Shown piece by piece: positions 10,653 through 26,481 of a stretch of DNA of 36,648 bases (positions are counted from its first letter, which is position 1; every line of letters starts with the position of its first letter). The notes under the pieces are model-generated. The model searched no databases. It was not told the origin of the DNA and worked only from the letters and a program-made list of their open reading frames with translations. Made by a program: the position numbers and the translations under genes. The DNA lies in contig DAOUWT010000003.1 in NCBI GenBank assembly GCA_030666985.1, positions 1 to 36,648 on the forward strand, read 5' to 3'. Origin of the DNA: Chloroflexota bacterium. Lineage in GTDB: Bacteria; Chloroflexota; Anaerolineae; Anaerolineales; UBA11858.

Positions 10653-13600
10653 CTATCCCCTGGAGGATGGTGAAGGTGTCCTCACCGAACGTTGGGCGGG
10701 TAACCATTCACTCTTCGGGGGGATAGGTAAAGCCTCGCCCACATCTTCCAGAAAAACTTCCATAAGCTGACTAAATTCTTGGATAGTGAACGGTTTTTGG
10801 AGCCAAAACACTTTTTCTTGCTCTAAGAGTTTTTTCTCCTTTCCACGCAGGGGGTGTCCCGTAACAAACAATATCTTCAAATCTGGCCACTTGGCCTGTA
10901 TATGGTTATAGAGGTCTACTCCCCCCATTTCTGGCATGACGATGTCACTCATCACAAAATAAAACTCCTGGGCCTGAAGATGTTCCAATGCCTCTACGCC
11001 GTTCGAAGCAGTCACCACTCGATAGTCGAATATTTCCAGCATGGATTTCAGGGCTTCGCGGGCGGGCCGGTCATCCTCGACTAATAATACACATTGTCCA
11101 GTTCCATTCAAAGTAATATCCTGCATTTGATCAACGTCATCATCCGCTGCGGGGATAAGCATTGGTAAAAACACGGTGAAAGTCGTTCCCTCTCCCTCTG
11201 TGCTTTCTATCTCAATATGCCCTTCGAATTGCTTGATGATTCCATAAACTTGCGCCAAACCTAAGCCGGTTCCTTTTCCAACTTCCTTGGTGGTAAAGAA
11301 AGGTTCGAAAATGTGGGCTTGGACATCTTCTGGAATCCCTGTCCCCGCATCAGAGACAGTAACCGTCACCCACTCTCCGGAAGAAAGGAAAGGATAGAGT
11401 TCAATTTCCTCTTCTCCTTGACGGGCACAGGCCAGCTCGAAACTCAACTCCCCACCATCTGGCATAGCATCCCGCGCGTTGACCGCCAAATTCATGAATA
11501 CTTGCTGCAATCGAGTGGGATCTACATTTACAAAATATTCCCCCGCTTCACTGTGCAGGGTCACTCGAATGCTCTCTGGAAGTGTTCGAGTGAGTAGTTT
11601 TTCTAGCTCTTTCAGGAAGGGGAGTAAATCAATTCGAGCTTCTTTCATAACCGAGCTTCGACTGAAGTCTAGCATTTGGTGAATCAGTTCAGAAGCCTGT
11701 TTAATTTGTTGTTTGATGACATTTAGGCGTTTCTCGAATCTGGGCGGCAAATTCTGTTCCCGCAGCAACAGCTCTGTGTAGACCAAGATAGCAGCCATAA
11801 TGTTGTTGAAATCGTGCCCGATGCCGGCCGCTAGTTGTCCCACTGTTGCCAATCGAGCCTGCATTTGAGTACGTTCCTGGTACTCACGCATAGCTGTCAC
11901 ATCTTGGAGGGTGACTATCCACTGCTGGCTGTCATTTTGCACAGGCCGCATCTGAAGTTCGAAGACTCTTTTGGAAGGTCCCGGCAGCTTAATGTCAACC
12001 GGTAGAGGCTCTTCTGAACGGGCAATAAGCTCAGATAGGGAGTAGGGGCCTAATTTGGCAATTACATCTCCTACTTTTGCGGAAGAAAGCTGCTTTAGAT
12101 ACTTTTTTCCTTGGGTGTTTATGGCCTCCAGCCGGTAATCTTCCGCCAACAAAAGCACCCCTATTGGCAATCCCTCGATCAGAGATTCCTGACGGTGCTG
12201 CTCTCCCGCCAGGCGATCAACCAGGCGATTCACATCTTGGTAGCGGTAAGCATTACTTAGCGCCAACCCCACTTGCTGGCAAATTGCTTCTAACAAATCA
12301 AGATGCTCTTCAGAAAAATCCCCCTCTGTATCAGATTGCACAGATAAAACACCCAAGAGAGATGAACCACTGAGAATAGGAGCAGCAATGAGAGAGCCTT
12401 GGGGTTCATCTACACCTTCGAAATAAGCCCAGCGTTCATCCTTGCTTACATCGGGAATGTATAGGGCTGCTTGGTTTTCTGCTGCCCATCCCATCAGGCC
12501 CTCGTCTAGTCTTAGTTCCCTAACATTCTGCACTTCTGAAGACGTGATATCTCGTCCGTATATGCTGTGTATTTTCAGGGTTTGCGTGTTTTTATTGTAC
12601 AATGTGGCGATCCCCACTTTGCCGCCCAAAGAGTGTGTGATAAGCTCTATGGCTTGTTCCAAAATTGTACCAACGTCTAAGCTGGTGGTCAGCTTTTTAC
12701 CTATATCATACAACAAGCTCAAACGTCTTTGTTCAACAGCAACTTGCTCGAATAAACGCGCATTTTCCACTGCAATGGCCGCCTGGTCGCTGAGCAGCTT
12801 TAAGACACGCAACTCAGTCTCCTGGAAATCACGTGGTTGTTGGTAGGCAATATTCATTACTCCTACAGTTCGATCTCCAATCAGGAGTGGCAGCCCCATA
12901 ATTGCCCCTTTCCAACCTTTTCGAGGGGCGACATCTGCGAATAAGGGATGCGTTTGCATATCTGGAACCAGAATAACCTCCTGGCTTCGGGCAACCTGGT
13001 AAGTCAATCCTTCTGGACGGGGAGCGGCGACTGGCCCCTCTCGGTTTCCATTCCTATGTAAAACAGCCCGAAAATATGCCGATGAACCATCGTACAAGAA
13101 AATATGAGCATCTTGAGCATCCGGCAAGTATTCAAGGACGCTGTTGAGGAGGGCATTAAAAACCTCTTCTGATTGTAAATTTGCCGTGAGGGTGAGAGTA
13201 GCCTGGCGGACGGTTTCTAATTCCTTGGCTCTTTGTTTTGCTTCCTCGAACAGGCGGGCGTTTTCCAAAGAGATGGCGACTTGGGTGGCCAGGGCTTCCA
13301 AAAAGCGTCTATCTTCGTTGTCGAAAGTGTACGGCTCGAACGATTGAACTGTAACCACTCCTATTAGACGTTCTCGAACGATGAAGGGCATCCCCAACCA
13401 AGAAAGCACCTTTCTCCCGTGCTCCTGAGGTTTGACCGGTAACTCATCCTCATCAAAATTCTTCACGAGAAGATATTTTCTGTGCTCTACAACCCAGCCC
13501 AGTAAACTTTCCTCTTCGATAGAGACCCGTCTGCCTATGAGGTCTGTCATTTCTTTCCCGTCTTCGACGGCAATAGCGATGGAAATTTCCTGTGAGGCTT

Positions 13601-15233
13601 CATCCCATAGGCCAACCAAAAAAGTGTCTGGGAGCATCAACCTGTCCACTTGGATATATAAGCGTTCCAGAATTTTCTCTGTATCTAAGACGCTGGAGGT
13701 GATCAAAGTGGTTTCGTATAGGCTGCTCAATTGGAGTGCATGCTGCTGAGAGTCTTCCAAAAGCTGAACGTTCTGAATGGCTACAGCTAATTGGTCGGCC
13801 ATGGTTTCTAGGACGCGAATATCTTCCTCATCGAAAGCTGCTGCGTGACGGCTCTGTACATCCAATACTCCGATAACGATCTCACCTATTTTGAGAGGAA
13901 TTGCCATCTCGGAACGTGTTTCCGGTAAGATAGGGTTTTCGAAATGAACTGGGTCTTCTCCTACATCCAAGGCAATGCGTGCCTCTCCGGTCTCGCAGAC
14001 ATGCCCCACAATGCCTACCATGCCTATCCGCAGCCTATGCTCTCGTTCGATCATTGTCTGTCCTGCTTCACCGGTGGCCGCCGTCAAAACAGCGTAGCGG
14101 CCATCTTCGCTGACCAAGAATAAACCGGCGTGATAAAAACCAAAACGGTCCTTGATCAAGTCAACAGCTTTATTCAGCAAGGGTTGCAATCTGCGCTCTT
14201 TTACTGCATCACGAGCCACCTCAGCTGCTACCTGAAGCTGGATAGCCCGTCGCTCTAAATCCTCGGCCGTTTTTTGTAGGCCTTCTTCGGCTCGAGCCCG
14301 CTCTGTGACATCACGAGCTATACTTAGTATGTAGAGTGGCTCACCATTCGAACCATAGACAGCTACGTCGCTCAACTCAATGGGTATTTCGAAATCCTTT
14401 TTATGAATAAAACGCCGCTCATGAAGTTGCGTTTTTTCTCCTTTACGTAATTTGGCAAACTTTGCCCGGCAGGCTGGGTGATAGTGGCCGGGGATCAGAT
14501 CGAATAAGGTCATACTGAGCAATTCTAATTCAGAATATCCTGTCAAATTTACGGCTTGCCGGTTGACAGTGATATACGCGCCATCAAAATCGTATATGAA
14601 AATAGCATCGTTACTGTGCTCGAAAAGCTCTTTATAAACCCTGTCGACCGCCACATACTCTTGATGAAATCCAAGGTGTTCTTCTGATAACCCAAGGGGG
14701 ATAGTGTCTTCTTCAAGGACGCACCACACCAACGTTGAATAATGGCACAACGCTTCAACTGCGGGGATATCCCCCGAGACCAGATTCTTGGCACGCAGGG
14801 CCAGCACCCCGCGTATTTTCCCGGCAGATGTCAAGGGGGAGTAAATGCTTGCTTCTATCCCATGAAATGTTTGCCGAATGACAGCAGAGGTTTTTTCAAC
14901 CAATCCCTGTTTAGACTGAGCATTTGAGTCTTGTTCTAAAATGTAGGTGCTTTCCCCGTTTTCTAAAACTTGCCGGAAAATATCCTCGTCCCCCAGGGAA
15001 GGTTTCGCGGTCCCTGTTGGAGCCGCAAGGGTCAGGTAAATCGCTTGCTTCTCACCGTTCATACGAATGACAACTTCCCCCTTTATCTCATATTTGGACA
15101 GGTTTTCCAAAAGCAGCGTCCAAATGTTCTTATGCGTTAGTTGTTTCTCGGCAAGCTTTTCTTCGAGTGTATGCAAAACCGTCAGAAGGGCGGTGGTATT
15201 GTGCGACGGGGAACGGTATTTAGAGGTGTTCAT
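10653..15233 (-). CDS. Hybrid sensor histidine kinase/response regulator (degenerate GAF, PAS, about 4 GAF, PAS-like, HisKA, HATPase, REC)
   Basis: PAS ending in ARDVTER; GAF motifs (SEMAIPL..GVLDVQS..F...D); H-box GIGHDFNN; [29 protein letters not shown]; receiver LLVEDD...SDIVMP...TG...KPF. Confidence 0.93.
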
Positions 15234-17994: not shown

Positions 17995-18103
17995 GTTAGT
18001 AGGAACAAGCTTGTCGTTTCGACGAGGAACGAGGAGAAATCTTTGGGTTCAGTCTACCATTAACTTACGGCGGAAAGATTTCTCCCTGTGGTCGAAATGA
18101 CAT
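17983..18103. mobile_element. Third copy of the MITE-like palindromic repeat (left TIR present, right TIR missing)
   Basis: CAATGTCATTAAGTT followed by a core very similar to 1-75. Confidence 0.8.
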
Positions 18104-18193
18104 CCTCCTTGAGAGCTTGCGGGGTTGACGCTGCAAGTCATCGGCGGGTTGTCCTTTGCGCTAAAACCCCACTTTCAACAAACTATAAACCGA

Positions 18194-18481
18194 CTATTTT
18201 CTAACCGTAGCAACTTGCCTGTTTAAATCTTTATCAATTCGTTCTCGCAAATATACTTTCATTAACGATTGATAGGGAACATCCATTTTATTTGCTATCA
18301 ATTTCAACTCATTTAACATTGTCTCTGACATACGCAGTGATATTGCTTTATTGGCCGGTTTTAGATTTGGCAATATCACCTGTTCTGCCTGACTCCAATC
18401 CATATATTCTGTGGAATCATGCGTTGCCCAGAATTCTCGTTCTTCATCTTCATTTTCGAATTTAGGAATTGGCTTTGGCAT
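18194..18481 (-). CDS. BrnA/CopG-like antitoxin
   Basis: IPKFENEDEEREFWATHDSTEY.DW, K.ISLR, K..A...VPYQSLMK..L; overlaps the toxin gene. Confidence 0.9.
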   Translation of the reverse strand: MPKPIPKFENEDEEREFWATHDSTEYMDWSQAEQVILPNLKPANKAISLRMSETMLNELKLIANKMDVPYQSLMKVYLRERIDKDLNRQVATVRK

Positions 18482-18758
18482 ATTTTCTTTCTTCCTTTTG
18501 GTTCATGTCACGGGCGGAGATTACCCGAATCTTGTTTTTTCTTATCGTAAAAGCTATAAACAACCATCTGTTTGCATTTGTATGACCCAATACATAGTAA
18601 CGTTTTTCATACTGAGAGTGTTTTGTGTCATCAGCCAACAAAAGCGGGATATTAAAGAATACTTCTTCACATTCTAAATCGGATACCTGATGGTTTATCC
18701 AATTTTTATCAATATTCCCATCGTCCCATTCAAAGCCATCAATGTTATAAATATCCAT
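18462..18758 (-). CDS. brnT: BrnT-family ribonuclease toxin
   Basis: GFEWD.GN..KN...H.V, EEVF, HS..E.RY..LG, FTIR..KIRVISARDM...ERK.Y. Confidence 0.92.
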   Translation of the reverse strand: MDIYNIDGFEWDDGNIDKNWINHQVSDLECEEVFFNIPLLLADDTKHSQYEKRYYVLGHTNANRWLFIAFTIRKNKIRVISARDMNQKEERKYAKANS

Positions 18759-18764
18759 CTGATT

Positions 18765-18795
18765 GTATAGTACCTTTATATACGCACAAAGTCAA
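18765..18795 (-). promoter_or_regulatory. brnTA promoter with operator-like palindrome
   Basis: TTGACT-N17-TACTAT, 8 nt before the ATG. GTATA-N9-TATAC inverted repeat overlaps the -10. Confidence 0.75.
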
Positions 18796-18937
18796 GAATA
18801 CGTTCATTCCAGTTGCTAGAAACAAATCTAAAATGAATACGATGTTCAATTTTAGCTATAGATTTGCACAATGCAAAACGTCAAATAATTCCCCTTTTGA
18901 AATTGATTTTTCAACCTTTTTGGGAGCAAGTATAGCA

Positions 18938-19062
18938 ACCCAACGTTGGCATAACCCGCTCACCGTTTTTGCATTCCGACACACTTCAATTATAGCCTGT
19001 CTTTGCATTTTTCGCGCCGCATACCAGAGCCGAAGGCGAGTCGGATGTACTTTGGGTTAGCT
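18938..19062 (-). other. Integron attC-like recombination site (125 bp)
   Basis: Minus strand: R'' AGCTAAC, 5-nt spacer, L'' GTA[C]ATCC G[A]CTCGCC ... GGTGAGC, L' GGGTTAT, 6-nt spacer, R' GTTGGGT. The two extrahelical bases sit at the canonical positions. Confidence 0.7.
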
Positions 19063-19125
19063 TTTGTTCGTATTCTAAACAAGCCTACGATTTGAGTTCT
19101 GTTCTCTCAAATACGCTACTGTAAG

Positions 19126-19509
19126 TTATTCCTCAAGCAAATGTTCTTCTATCTCACTTAACACTTGTTTGAGAGCAGGTTGATCTGTGGGAGATAATTT
19201 ATTTTCCCCAATGTGTTTATGATGTGGATAAGTAATTATTTCAGGATGGTGCGGAGCGTTATCATACCGAAACACACTTTGATTTTGGCGAATATAAGAA
19301 TACGAGTAAATGACACGCACCGGATATCCTAATTCGGTACTGACGGTTTCATGAATACTCAAAAAAGAGCCATCCCAAAAATAAGCTCTGCACCGGAGTA
19401 TCCCATTAAAATCGTCGGAAGCCAGTATTTCTGTTATCTCAATAGATGTAATCGAATCGTATTGATTTAAACTGCGTTCAATTGATGAAAAATAATCAGT
19501 GATGTTCAT
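19126..19509 (-). CDS. DUF6516/TumE-like putative toxin
   Basis: F.DGS.L.I.E, YSY, FRYDNAPHHP....PHHKH; 4-bp overlap with the upstream small ORF. Confidence 0.85.
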   Translation of the reverse strand: MNITDYFSSIERSLNQYDSITSIEITEILASDDFNGILRCRAYFWDGSFLSIHETVSTELGYPVRVIYSYSYIRQNQSVFRYDNAPHHPEIITYPHHKHIGENKLSPTDQPALKQVLSEIEEHLLEE

Positions 19510-19727
19510 GACACTGACGCAGATTCAAACATAAGTTGTCTGATGGGCAAGGATGTAAGGTATAAATGATACAATCCCGCCCAAGTTAACCACTTATCAT
19601 CGTCACCCATTTCCCCGTTTTGATAGCGCATGTAAAATTCAATTGTAGAGTATCCATATTTCAATTCTAAATCAGACAATCGCTGACTAAGCTCTTGAAA
19701 TGACATCCGTTTGGGTTCAAAAGACAT
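19506..19727 (-). CDS. Putative cognate antitoxin (TumA-like)
   Basis: L..LE.KYG.ST.EFY.RY..GEMGDD....W pattern; AGGAG RBS; translationally coupled to the toxin. Confidence 0.75.
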   Translation of the reverse strand: MSFEPKRMSFQELSQRLSDLELKYGYSTIEFYMRYQNGEMGDDDKWLTWAGLYHLYLTSLPIRQLMFESASVS

Positions 19728-19918
19728 TTTTTACTCCTAGCCATGAATCACAACAAACTAACACATTCCCCTTTAATTAATTCACAATTCGTCTTAAGCC
19801 GAAAATGTTCCGCCGAATCTCCCTCTGATAGGTTTTATACGGAAAAATTTCGGCATAATCATAAACATAGGCGAAACCCTCGCGCATATTCGGAAAATCT
19901 TCCACGCTAACCAAGAAC

Positions 19919-20567
19919 ACAAATATTCTATCATATTCCACTCCCCTTCCAGCAACATTCACCTAGAAAAACCTCACCCTCCAATACCCAATATCTAATA
20001 TCCAATACCCCCAAAAGCCGCGCTGTGCGTGCCGTCACTGTGTGCGCCTCCGGCGGGCAAGGCTAGGCAGCTTAACGCGGAGGTAGCTGACGTTCATAAT
20101 TTTCTTCATTGGCTTCCAATAATAATTTAGCACGCCTGTACGTTTTCCCGCGTGTGGCTACACAATCAAGGCGTAATTTCTTTGTTATATAATCATATAA
20201 TTCGCGGTGCGTCCCATACTCATGCAAAACATCATCACTGTAGGAAACAGGGGAGCAAGCGTCAAAGAGTTTTTGCAACTCCATACGCTCATTTTCTAGC
20301 AATTCTTCTTGCTTGTAGTTTTGGCGTAAAATATCCCAAACAAAACGATGTATCGTATTTTCACTCTTAGCTTCAGGAAGTGGTAATTCTAAAAATGCTT
20401 CTTGCAAAGCGATGTATTCAGAGTAAGCTAAATCTCTCATTCTTCCCACCCCGCTGCTAGAATTTCTCTCTTGCCAGCAAAATGCCAGCTAACCAAGGAT
20501 TGATCCCATCAAAAACACGAGTACAAATATTTTATCATATTCCACTCTTCTTCCAGCAACATCCACC
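19919..20567 (-). repeat. 45-bp direct repeat pair (19919-19963 and 20523-20567) carrying an extended -10
   Basis: 41/45 identical. Minus strand TGATAGAAT / TGATAAAAT, each followed downstream by CTTGGTTAGC. Confidence 0.8.
20072..20440 (-). CDS. Hypothetical protein (low GC, cassette-like)
   Basis: About 122-aa ORF, plausible helical protein, no recognisable motif. Start is ATG 20440 or GTG 20449. Confidence 0.6.
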   Translation of the reverse strand: MRDLAYSEYIALQEAFLELPLPEAKSENTIHRFVWDILRQNYKQEELLENERMELQKLFDACSPVSYSDDVLHEYGTHRELYDYITKKLRLDCVATRGKTYRRAKLLLEANEENYERQLPPR

Positions 20568-23446: not shown

Positions 23447-24214
23447 TCAGTATTTCGTTTCCAGGCTAGCGGTTGGCAAAACAATTTCCCCTTCACGGGA
23501 ATCCCCCACTTGGGTGATTTGCTCAGGTTTGATGGCGGCTGTCCAGGCTGTGTAGGCGGCTATTAGGGCGTCTAGCTCCTCGGGGGAATAGAGGCGATCT
23601 AGGGGCAGGATGCCTTGTAAAATCCGATAGCGGGTGATTTCTTCGAAGATGCGCATGGCGTCCGGGACTTCAACGGATTTTGAATGCAGGAGTACTTGGC
23701 GTTGTAAGCGGCCCATCAGGGTTTTCTTTTTGAAGGGTAGTATGCCCAACAAGACGGTATAAGCCGCGTGGGGATAAACTTCAAGAACTTGCAGGGAGGC
23801 TTCTTCTTGGGGATACTCCCGATAGCCGAATTTTTCCAGACGCCGGTAGATTTTGAAGCCAGTTTGCATCCAGCCCGGACAGGCCTCAGTTTTGGCACAG
23901 GTGCGGGGGATGCGGATATTGTGCTGAAAAAGCCGGTACTCCGCCACTCGAAAGCTTGTCCAACGCCCTGGGGTCGGGATAGGAGATAGCTCCTGGCGTA
24001 TCTCTTCTTGCTGCATTAGCTTCTGGTTTGGACGCCTGGGAGAGTTGATGCCCACAAAGGCCGTTTCCTGCCCGCCCGCAAAAGCCAGGACGTCGTTTAT
24101 GTCGCCTTGGGAGAGAGCCAGCAGCCGCAGGTCTTGGTCCAAGACCGCGTAGGTGATGGGACGTTCTCCTGCTGTGGGGTCTATGCCAATAAAGACGGTG
24201 TTATTGAATAACAT
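23447..24214 (-). CDS. DUF429-family predicted RNase H-fold nuclease
   Basis: FIGID, R.AE..L, EVYPHA, LDALIAAYTA, EG.IVLP. Confidence 0.85.
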   Translation of the reverse strand: MLFNNTVFIGIDPTAGERPITYAVLDQDLRLLALSQGDINDVLAFAGGQETAFVGINSPRRPNQKLMQQEEIRQELSPIPTPGRWTSFRVAEYRLFQHNIRIPRTCAKTEACPGWMQTGFKIYRRLEKFGYREYPQEEASLQVLEVYPHAAYTVLLGILPFKKKTLMGRLQRQVLLHSKSVEVPDAMRIFEEITRYRILQGILPLDRLYSPEELDALIAAYTAWTAAIKPEQITQVGDSREGEIVLPTASLETKY

Positions 24215-24228
24215 AATTTGGGGAGTGG

Positions 24229-24275
24229 GGAACTGAGGAACCGCATTCCTCTAAGGAACGCGGTTCCTCAGTTCC
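24229..24275. repeat. Doubled GGAACCGCGTTCC palindrome (REP-like)
   Basis: GGAACTGAGGAACCGCATTCCT-CTA-AGGAACGCGGTTCCTCAGTTCC. Same motif at 17161-17179 and 33917-33951. Confidence 0.8.
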
Positions 24276-24489
24276 TCAAAAAGCTTGTACTATGAGTGTA
24301 GCGCAAAACCTTGATTATGGCAATGTTTTTTTTGTAATTTGCAGGGCAATTGCATTTGGCATCAAATATATAAGGGGATTCCAAGAAAATAATTGTCCCA
24401 AAGTTCGTGGTGTGTGAAGACGTGATGCGTGAAAACGTGAAACGTGAAATCATGCATCACGTCTTTACGTTTCACGTTTTACGTTTCAT

Positions 24490-24895
24490 TAATTATTCCA
24501 CATGTTGTTAAGTATTTATATTTAGTAGTCTTAGTAGGGGCTGTGGATAAGTGGATAAGGCGCTTATCCGAAGTTGAAATCCCTGACTAGTTTGATGTTC
24601 AGGAGATATATAGGGGATACCATTTGGCAAGGGGGTGTATGTGGGGGTGGGTTGGGGAGAGGGCATGAAAAGTTATCTACAGTTTGCATGTGGAAAAGGC
24701 AGGAATAACTTTCTTAGGAAATAGCGCTTTCTGGTCTTAACTCTATATATGGGGGAAAGAGAGTCTATGACCGCTATATGTGCTAAAAAGGGAATTTGGT
24801 CTGTGGATAAAAAGAGGAGAGTTATCCCCAAAAGAGGGTGGTTATCCACAATTTTTAAGGGGTTATCCACAGTTTTCGTGCTTTGTGGGAAAATT
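24490..24895. other. Candidate chromosomal replication origin (oriC)
   Basis: Perfect DnaA boxes at 24542, 24802, 24842 and 24863; near matches at 24550, 24673, 24689, 24822 and 24884. TAG-TAG-TCT-TAG-TAG trios (24523-24537), GGGC spacer and an AT-rich tract. Confidence 0.8.
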
Positions 24896-24933: not shown

Positions 24934-26193
24934 CTATACTTGAGGGGCTATTATTGTCCCATCGGGAATGACGGTGTTCTTAGGAATCACCACAATACCA
25001 TCGCGGATAGACCAGTTTCCGAATTGTTCTTCGGTGCCGCGCGGGAAAGGTTTTATAACTACATTGGCGCCAATACGGACATTTTTATCTATGAGCGCAC
25101 CCTCAACATGGCTGTTGGCTCCAATGCCAATTGGCACGTCAGACGCTTGCGATCTATGCTTTTCATAATAATCTGCGCCCATCAAGACGGTGTCTTTCAG
25201 GAAAGCATTATCTTGGATTTGGCTGCGCACCCCAACTACTGAATGGATAATTTCTGCCTGCCCTATGTAGCTGCCGTCTGACAAGAAAACCTGTTCCAGG
25301 CGGGCGCCTTTTACGATTGTCCCCGGCAAAAAGCGGGGATGTGTGTAAATAGGGGCCAGGGGGTTGTAGATTTTAAATGGAGGGTTTTGGAGAGTCAGGT
25401 TGAGGTTTGCTTCATAAAAAGAGCGAATTGTTCCAATATCTTCCCAATAGTCTTCAAAGTCGAATCCAATCACATTTTTGGTGTGGATAGCGTTGGGGAT
25501 AACTTCTCCGCCAAAATCATCTGCGGTGGAGTTTTCTAGGAGTTCAATCAACACTTCTGTTTTGAAAAAATAAATTCCCATAGAACCCAGATAAGGGAGT
25601 TTAGGGTCATCTCGACTGACAACTTTTTTCAAAACATCCGGGTCGCTTGGTTTTTCTACAAAATCGGTGAGAAAGCCACTTGAATCCCTTTTAAGAATGC
25701 CGAGGCTAGGGGCTTGGGATGCAGAAACTGGCTGTACCGCAATGCAGATGTCGGCGTCCTTCTCCCAGAGATGCTTTGCCATAGCCTTGTAATCCATGCG
25801 GTAGAGATGGTCTCCCGCCAAAACTAAGACATATTTTGCCCCCGTGGTGCGAATCTCCAAAAGTTGTTGGCGAACCGCGTCAGCCGTGCCTTGGTACCAG
25901 GTCTGATTTGTGAAAGTTTGTTCCGCCGCCCAAATCTGGACCCAGCCCCGGTGAAAGGGATCAAAGTTGTAGGTCTGGGTGATATGCCGGTGGAGAGAAA
26001 CGGAATTGAATTGAGTAAGTACCGCAATTCGGTTTATGTCAGAATTGATGCAATTGCTGAGAGGTATGTCTATTAGGCGGTATTTCCCAGCGATAGGGAC
26101 GGCAGGTTTGGCGCGTACTTTTGTTAAGGGGTAGAGGCGTGTCCCCCGTCCTCCGCCCATGATGACGCCTAAAATGTCTTTAGTTGAAGGCAT
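24934..26193 (-). CDS. glgC: Glucose-1-phosphate adenylyltransferase
   Basis: GGGRGTRLYPLT..RAKPAVP, LTQFNS.SL, WYQGTADAV, GDHLYRMDY, FVEKP, DFGGEVIP, YWEDIGT. Confidence 0.97.
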   Translation of the reverse strand: MPSTKDILGVIMGGGRGTRLYPLTKVRAKPAVPIAGKYRLIDIPLSNCINSDINRIAVLTQFNSVSLHRHITQTYNFDPFHRGWVQIWAAEQTFTNQTWYQGTADAVRQQLLEIRTTGAKYVLVLAGDHLYRMDYKAMAKHLWEKDADICIAVQPVSASQAPSLGILKRDSSGFLTDFVEKPSDPDVLKKVVSRDDPKLPYLGSMGIYFFKTEVLIELLENSTADDFGGEVIPNAIHTKNVIGFDFEDYWEDIGTIRSFYEANLNLTLQNPPFKIYNPLAPIYTHPRFLPGTIVKGARLEQVFLSDGSYIGQAEIIHSVVGVRSQIQDNAFLKDTVLMGADYYEKHRSQASDVPIGIGANSHVEGALIDKNVRIGANVVIKPFPRGTEEQFGNWSIRDGIVVIPKNTVIPDGTIIAPQV

Positions 26194-26303: not shown

Positions 26304-26362
26304 TATAGGTGAGGGGATATTTTTTGTTTTCATGGGGGATTATTTCAAAGGAAAATAGCGAA

Positions 26363-26446
26363 TGCCGAAGGTGGGAGTCGAACCCACAATCCTGTAAAGG
26401 AACGCGAGTTTGAGTCGCGCGCGTCTGCCTGTTCCGCCACTCCGGC
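26363..26446 (-). tRNA. tRNA-Leu(CAA), CCA not encoded
   Basis: GCCGGAG acceptor stem, D-arm TGGCGGAACAGGCAGACGC, anticodon arm CGCGA-CTCAAAC-TCGCG, long variable arm, GTGGGTTCGACTCCCAC, discriminator A. Confidence 0.96.
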
Positions 26447-26481
26447 AATGGGCAATGCGGCAATTTTGCATTGCGTCAGTA

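Follow-up and report, generated by a model that had tools for sequence, protein, structure and literature searches.

A predicted chromosomal replication origin with a Bacillus-type unwinding module, separate from dnaA and dnaN, in an uncultured Anaerolineales bacterium

The interval between the DUF429 gene and glgC

The DNA analyzed here is a stretch of 36,648 nucleotides (referred to as the window), which comprises the whole contig C26 of an Anaerolineales assembly (G000; 2.9 Mb in 429 contigs, 88% complete). A preceding sequence-only reading had located a probable origin of replication between a DUF429 gene and glgC. Both neighbors were confirmed, the DUF429 gene at 23447-24214 and glgC at 24934-26193, the product of the latter matching the Pfam families NTP_transferase and LbH_GLGC. 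The two genes are encoded on the minus strand, and the 3′-end of glgC faces an array of DnaA boxes. It had also been stated that most genes of the surroundings point away from the site. This holds true for the region from 10.6 to 24.2 kb, whose genes mostly lie on the minus strand, but not for glgC and a phosphodiesterase gene (24.9-28.0 kb), both of which are directed towards the site.

Two dispersed palindromic repeats are inserted between the DUF429 gene and the putative origin, outside its core. The first repeat (24226-24278), which can form a hairpin, exists at 19 places on 16 contigs of the assembly, while the second (24406-24491), composed of ACGTGAAA-like units, was detected at approximately 175 places on 116 contigs. 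Since the second repeat often resides near contig ends, it probably contributes to the fragmentation of the assembly. Related copies of it are present in close relatives. The intergenic region gave no match to an Rfam family and does not contain a tRNA gene; the sole RNA match within the window is a tRNA-Leu at 26362-26447.

Some other parts of the window also attracted attention. The stretch from 18000 to 20500 has a low GC content (0.37-0.42 versus 0.51 for the genome) and harbors a gene for a TumE-family toxin on the minus strand (19126-19509). This stretch, 4 kb away from the putative origin, looks like acquired DNA. At 10653-15233, a hybrid sensor kinase of 1526 amino acids is encoded, which possesses a PAS domain, four GAF domains, a HisKA/HATPase module and a receiver domain.

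The core of the site extends from 24486 to 24558. Read on the minus strand, it had been described as tandem DnaA boxes followed by the spacer GCCC, trio-like repeats and an AT tract, and this string was indeed found at 24523-24558 with the AT tract to its left. The box next to the spacer is the perfect DnaA box TTATCCACA on the minus strand (24542-24550; the plus strand reads TGTGGATAA). It is joined by a second box in tandem, TTATCCACT, on the same strand (24550-24558; plus strand AGTGGATAA), which has one mismatch and overlaps the first by one base. On the other side, the GC-rich spacer GGGC (24538-24541) leads to five DnaA-trios at 24523-24537 on the plus strand, TAG TAG TCT TAG TAG, in which the 3′-GAT-5′ trio is read on that strand. 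Counted from the proximal box, the spacer to the trios thus measures 4 bp, and counted from the upstream box, 12 bp. TAG makes up four of the trios, including the two nearest to the boxes. The third one, TCT, has no central A and breaks the run, so that only two strictly consecutive central-A trios remain. In alignments, several relatives have TAG at this third position, and the three-nucleotide period is kept. Beyond the trios lies an AT-rich tract (24486-24522), a candidate DNA unwinding element. It contains a degenerate box-like sequence, TTATTCCACA (24493-24502), and a weak TTATCCCCA-like box occurs at the aligned position of the AT tract in many relatives. Within the intergenic region, stability is lowest for the 30-mer at 24508-24537, which is made up of AT tract and trios; its dG of -29.0 compares with a window mean of -40.9 ± 3.9 and falls into the top 0.04% of the window.

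The basal unwinding system of Bacillus subtilis oriC is reportedly described by Richardson et al. 2019 (PMC6669920). At incC of this origin, DnaA boxes 6 and 7, a GC cluster, DnaA-trios and an AT-rich region follow one another, and the site shares with it the tandem boxes in the same orientation, the 4-bp GC spacer, a GAT trio nearest to the box and the AT tract beyond the trios. Thus, the claim of a B. subtilis-like unwinding layout was sustained, as its sequence features are present here and conserved across genus and order, the TCT trio being an imperfection. Unlike the B. subtilis system, the site is not positioned between dnaA and dnaN, its boxes overlap by one base, and its third trio is TCT. 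In the basal unwinding systems characterized by Pelliciari et al. 2021 (PMC8287927), one or two DnaA boxes (in tandem in 57%) are combined with a spacer of up to 16 bp, most frequently 13 bp, and with at least three trios containing a central adenine, 3′-GAT-5′ being the commonest one next to the box; the system is reported there to be broadly conserved. The upstream-box spacer of 12 bp at our site compares with this mode of 13 and limit of 16 bp. Those rows of the supplementary table that were compared (PMC8287927) agree with the trio/box polarity of the site, and one Deinococcus row has the same CGGG spacer.

To the right of the core, a middle part of weak conservation, in which three boxes are found (24564-24697), is followed by a phased array. 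The middle part comprises TTATCCGAA (24564-24572, plus strand), which was read from the sequence and has two mismatches, as well as TTATCTACA (24673-24681, plus strand) and TTTTCCACA (24689-24697, minus strand), each with no more than one mismatch. A perfect box resides at 24802-24810 on the minus strand; in the alignment it was common to the genomes G012 and G009 only. The array itself (24822-24871) consists of three direct boxes on the plus strand, TTATCCCCA at 24822 with at most one mismatch and the perfect TTATCCACA at 24842 and 24863, whose starts are spaced by 20 and 21 bp. One more site with two mismatches was read at 24884-24892. Besides the tandem pair, there are accordingly six boxes with one mismatch or less (24673, 24689, 24802, 24822, 24842 and 24863) and the two sites with two mismatches (24564-24572 and 24884-24892), which makes the estimate of about seven additional boxes a fair one.

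Boxes with up to one mismatch are overrepresented in the window, where 16 were counted against 7.5 ± 2.8 in shuffled sequences; a count of 16 was not attained in any of 100 shuffles. Across the assembly, 728 such boxes were recorded (0.25 per kb), of which only 28 are perfect. With eight boxes in 330 bp, the site is the top 500-bp box cluster of the 2.9 Mb, and it accommodates four of the 28 perfect boxes, while the runner-up cluster has five boxes. A second cluster was noticed on contig C202 (14894-14989), where five boxes, three of them perfect, are located within 96 bp. These boxes fall within the 3′-terminal part of an RmlD-like gene, and the contig ends 160 bp away. G020 and G012, the two closest relatives, retain them, but a genus-wide occurrence of the cluster was not observed. 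The cluster may serve in DnaA titration or in regulation, or else be a side effect of the encoded protein sequence.

Conservation of the site and its distance from dnaA

A DNA search of 40 relatives disclosed two short conserved blocks approximately 300 bp apart, one being the block of AT tract, trios, spacer and tandem boxes and the other one the three-box block. Both were recovered from most genomes of the genus and from several other families of the order. All 24 aligned genomes share a core of an AT-rich part, five trios, GGG plus two nucleotides and two boxes. Within the spacer, GGG is invariant in the 24 genomes and succeeded by two variable bases. The trio element is nearly invariant in them, and its variants TCGTAGTCGTAGTAG, TAGTAATAGTAGTAG and TAGTAGTTGTAGTAG keep the period of three bases. 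The right block displayed three direct boxes, about 20-21 bp from start to start, in 23 of 23 aligned genomes, although the bases between the array boxes are unconserved. The sequence around core and array drifts, and that between the two blocks is poorly conserved except in the nearest relative. At the homologous place, each of 25 genomes including G000 revealed three to nine boxes per 450 bp. The preservation of boxes, spacer and trios amid drifting flanks constitutes a phylogenetic footprint of selection on these elements.

The genes on both sides of the cluster differ in this respect. glgC adjoins the cluster in 17 of the 18 loci from the genus and therefore is its conserved right-hand neighbor, whereas the DUF429 gene was not found beside the cluster in any of 21 loci of relatives, the left neighbor being variable.

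From the core alignment a 31-nt IUPAC pattern, TMGTMNTNNTMGTAGGGNNTGNGGAWAWGTG, was derived. Of 201 genomes of the order, 34 (G000 among them) contain precisely one copy of it, while the reversed pattern used as control was absent from all 201. Single copies were found in 11 of 11 genomes of the genus, again including G000, and in 14 of 17 others of the family. A strict scan for a box followed by at least three consecutive T-A-N trios was also attempted and abandoned as a test of uniqueness, as it returned two weak, chance-like sites and missed the present one because of the TCT trio.

The pattern was moreover scanned in species-representative genomes, which gave at least 120 matching stretches, 80 of which were examined. 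Among the matches listed, 46 loci belong to other phyla according to their record titles. They derive from Bacillota (including Sporosarcina, Bacillus, Paenibacillus and Clostridium), Acidobacteriota and Poribacteria, and also from Thermus, Omnitrophota and Bdellovibrionales. In 45 of these 46 listed loci dnaA is situated beside the pattern, and in 42 of them dnaN was encountered on its other side. From the adjacency of dnaA in other phyla we concluded that origins of the classical type are what the pattern recognizes. The site resembles the dnaA-adjacent origins of Sporosarcina, Bacillus, Paenibacillus, Clostridium, Thermus, Acidobacteriota and Poribacteria in exhibiting the same 31 nt in the same polarity, and it differs from the origins of other phyla in that glgC and the DUF429 gene take the places of dnaA and dnaN.

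The Chloroflexota contributed 34 loci to the matches listed, some of them short and most of them from Anaerolineales or Anaerolineaceae. Of these, only two contained dnaA within 6 kb and two contained dnaN, while 30 had neither. In seven of the 34 listed loci a glgC gene is located near the pattern, whose product is 58-72% identical to that of the window, so that the lineage of the window belongs with these loci.

In our assembly, dnaA (C309:765-2120) and dnaN (C269:20905-22080) lie on contigs other than that of the window, and the sequence-only reading was right in regarding the site as unlinked to both. The 765 bp between dnaA and the upstream contig end contain a single perfect box, two further sites with two mismatches and no trios; hence, in contrast to B. 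subtilis, a companion box cluster is missing in these 765 bp up to the contig end. The perfect box (C309:495-503), roughly 270 bp in front of the dnaA start, is probably an autoregulatory site. Within the 2.1 kb upstream of dnaN, no box better than one mismatch was detected.

The distance between dnaA and the pattern was compared in 32 genomes having both. In three genomes of two other families (G029, G035 and G079) it amounts to about 1 kb. Three further genomes have dnaA on the same contig at a considerable distance (21 kb in G048, 166 kb in G038 and 773 kb in G217). In the remaining 26, including 14 of 14 of the window's family, dnaA resides on a different contig, with the restriction that in some of them, e.g., G127 and G092, the pattern is near a contig end and an adjacent dnaA may be hidden by the break. 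Two same-genus genomes have the pattern on long contigs, at 260 kb of the 482-kb contig G005:C6 and at 911 kb of the 1,053-kb contig G003:C3, with dnaA on another contig in either case. For these genomes adjacency to dnaA is excluded. Neither dnaA nor dnaN was identified in 20 same-genus loci, which covered 3-10 kb around the cluster. In G038, dnaN lies approximately 7 kb from the module.

Strand asymmetry at the site and its counterparts

The sequence-only reading had proposed the GC skew of the full contig as a check, which did not furnish any support. Its GC-skew switch is near 20.75 kb and ranks 12th among 58 contigs of at least 12 kb. Since such a switch is unexceptional and skew on the scale of contigs is noisy, the local skew was dropped as evidence for an origin. 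A gradient of read depth would likewise be too slight to be visible over 24 kb of a 2.9-Mb genome.

More informative data were obtained from relatives. In G005:C6 (same genus, 400 kb) the cumulative GC skew has its minimum at 261,201, with the cluster at 260.05-260.39 kb, and in G003:C3 (same genus, 393 kb) at 909,881, with the cluster at 910.7-911.1 kb. After correction for gene orientation, the skew component still changes sign at the cluster in both genomes. The predominant coding strand flips there as well in G005, and its shift is weaker in G003. G217:C9, belonging to another family, gave a minimum at 1,491,874 and a cluster at 1,490,607-1,491,044; the 100 kb analyzed here surround the cluster, and the region of its dnaA, 773 kb away, is outside this span. 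Thus, in three of four relatives the minimum is only about 1 kb from the cluster.

The exception is G038, a member of another family and the only complete relative (2,574,431 bp), of which 1.55 of 2.57 Mb were joined and analyzed. Its cumulative minimum at 2,423,140 is 318 kb apart from the cluster (166.4-166.8 kb) and does not coincide with dnaA either, and correction for gene orientation left this mismatch unchanged. The genome exhibits a zone of flat skew of about 700 kb, extending from about 2.43 Mb through the start of the record to 0.53 Mb, in which the skew is roughly +0.01 as against +/-0.06 elsewhere. The module is positioned near the middle of this zone, roughly opposite a terminus-type switch near 1.5 Mb. 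Even so, no part of the 1.55 Mb analyzed has a denser box cluster, and nothing comparable was found there near the skew minimum or dnaA. The displaced minimum and the flat zone count against the site being an origin. One rather doubtful reading of this zone is that initiation has recently shifted to another site in G038, or that its site is not unique.

A probable origin of replication and competing explanations

Taken together, we consider it highly probable (roughly 0.88) that the region 24486-24871 is the chromosomal oriC, equipped with a basal unwinding system and uncoupled from dnaA and dnaN. This assignment, which agrees with the earlier proposal that the site is the origin, is supported by the anatomy of the site, its footprint in relatives and its occurrence as a single copy in the genome, by the identity of its pattern with that of dnaA-adjacent origins, which served as controls, and by the skew minimum in three of four relatives. 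How the site would function can be sketched after the B. subtilis model, from which the binding of DnaA, the opening of the strands and the firing of the origin in vivo were inferred. DnaA would bind to the double-stranded boxes of the array (24822-24871), to the scattered boxes and to the tandem pair (24542-24558). From the tandem pair, an oligomer of ATP-DnaA is predicted to extend over GGGC onto the plus-strand trios (24523-24537). By stretching this strand, the oligomer would open the adjacent AT tract (approximately 24486-24522), where the helicase could then be loaded.

Clusters of DnaA boxes outside an origin are known from E. coli, in which datA and DARS are examples. The site has in common with them that it is a dense box cluster away from dnaA. 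datA and DARS are not known to possess a module of trios, spacer and AT-rich unwinding element or to reside at a skew minimum; in contrast to them, the present site has the unwinding module, and its homologs coincide with the skew minimum in three of four relatives. One might nevertheless assume that the site merely titrates DnaA or regulates its neighbors, in the manner of datA/DARS or of a controlled promoter, the true origin being elsewhere. Off-origin box clusters do exist, G000 has another one in the rmlD-like gene, the skew minimum of G038 is 318 kb from the homologous cluster, and in an assembly that is 88% complete the origin might perhaps lie in unassembled sequence. However, titration or regulation requires neither trios nor a GC spacer nor an AT tract, and exactly these parts are best conserved. 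Besides the skew minima of the three relatives, the marking of dnaA-adjacent origins in other phyla by the pattern and its single occurrence per genome also speak against such a role. Furthermore, neither the surroundings of dnaA and dnaN nor those of the skew minimum revealed a rival cluster in G038, and none was detected in the 765 bp upstream of dnaA and the 2.1 kb upstream of dnaN in G000. We therefore regard this explanation as very unlikely.

Even less credit was given to the idea, a fallback of the sequence-only reading, that the site supplies only the unwinding part of a bipartite origin, whose other boxes would be elsewhere, for example upstream of dnaA beyond the contig end or on C202. 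Split origins have been reported (PMC8235120), B. subtilis and Helicobacter pylori being examples, the dnaA contig begins only 765 bp in front of the gene and has the perfect box at 495, and the five boxes of C202 are only 160 bp from a contig end. Yet a full box array already adjoins the unwinding module at the site, so that a second half would not be needed; the 765 bp between the contig end and dnaA comprise one perfect box and no trios. In G038, moreover, the 3 kb on each side of dnaA yielded a single box with one mismatch, and the boxes of C202 are part of a coding sequence, common to the two nearest relatives only and not to the genus. The least probable explanation in our opinion is a relic, i.e., an ancestral origin retained for another DnaA-dependent role after initiation moved to a new site. 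The flat zone and the displaced minimum of G038, which fit neither the cluster nor dnaA, would be in line with it, but a relic should decay, while every module of the site is visibly constrained in 24 genomes and the skew minimum sits on the cluster in G005, G003 and G217. Each of these three alternatives explains less of the evidence than the assignment as oriC, and they survive mainly owing to the fragmentation of the genome and the odd behavior of G038.

No new mechanism is implied by the assignment as oriC, and other phyla are already known to have origins distant from dnaA. In E. coli, oriC is located between gidA and mioC, away from dnaA, and cyanobacterial origins lie beside dnaN, likewise away from dnaA. 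The site shares with these origins the physical uncoupling from the initiator gene. It differs from the cyanobacterial ones insofar as in this genus dnaN is unlinked, too. Published work, too, acknowledges origins apart from dnaA (PMC10225481), and the IHF-assisted loop-back arrangement outlined there for E. coli contrasts with the Bacillus-type module of boxes and trios present here. By title or abstract, no paper on origins of Anaerolineae or Chloroflexota was found; DoriC may already list predictions.

The analysis provides an origin call at the sequence level for an uncultured lineage whose dnaA, the customary guide to origins, leads astray. As the pattern is found once per genome, it may be used as an anchor for growth-rate estimates based on read depth, for replichore analyses and for ordering the contigs of metagenome-assembled genomes. 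That the module is intact while its classical neighbors were shuffled supports the published view that the module of boxes and trios, and not its address, is the conserved core.

It would appear that the origin retained the ancestral module and lost the usual neighbors, glgC having taken the place of dnaA in this genus. Elsewhere in the order, some families have kept dnaA next to the box array, and in one family dnaN is 7 kb off. The site is regarded as homologous to the dnaA-adjacent origins of sister families and of other phyla. The genomes of the order can be arranged in a series, beginning with an adjacent dnaA (G029, G035 and G079) and proceeding via a distance of 21 kb (G048) and the combination of dnaN at 7 kb with dnaA at 166 kb (G038) to the genus of the window, in which both genes are unlinked. 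On this basis we tentatively suggest, as a possibility that is still rather doubtful, that a Bacillus-type module became uncoupled from dnaA and dnaN within the Anaerolineales, either repeatedly or at least early. If this is true, predictions guided by dnaA would misplace the origin for much of the class. A possible example would then be Anaerolinea thermophila, for which the entry of the published survey (PMC8287927) gives a weak basal unwinding system at coordinates 420-460, with a box of two mismatches, a 16-bp spacer and a low score.

Two Anaerolineaceae loci (L164 and L194) were observed to have dnaN 3.7-4.7 kb from the module of boxes and trios; the DnaN protein of L194 is 73% identical to that of G000. 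These loci have the appearance of transitional stages from the classical to the fully uncoupled arrangement.
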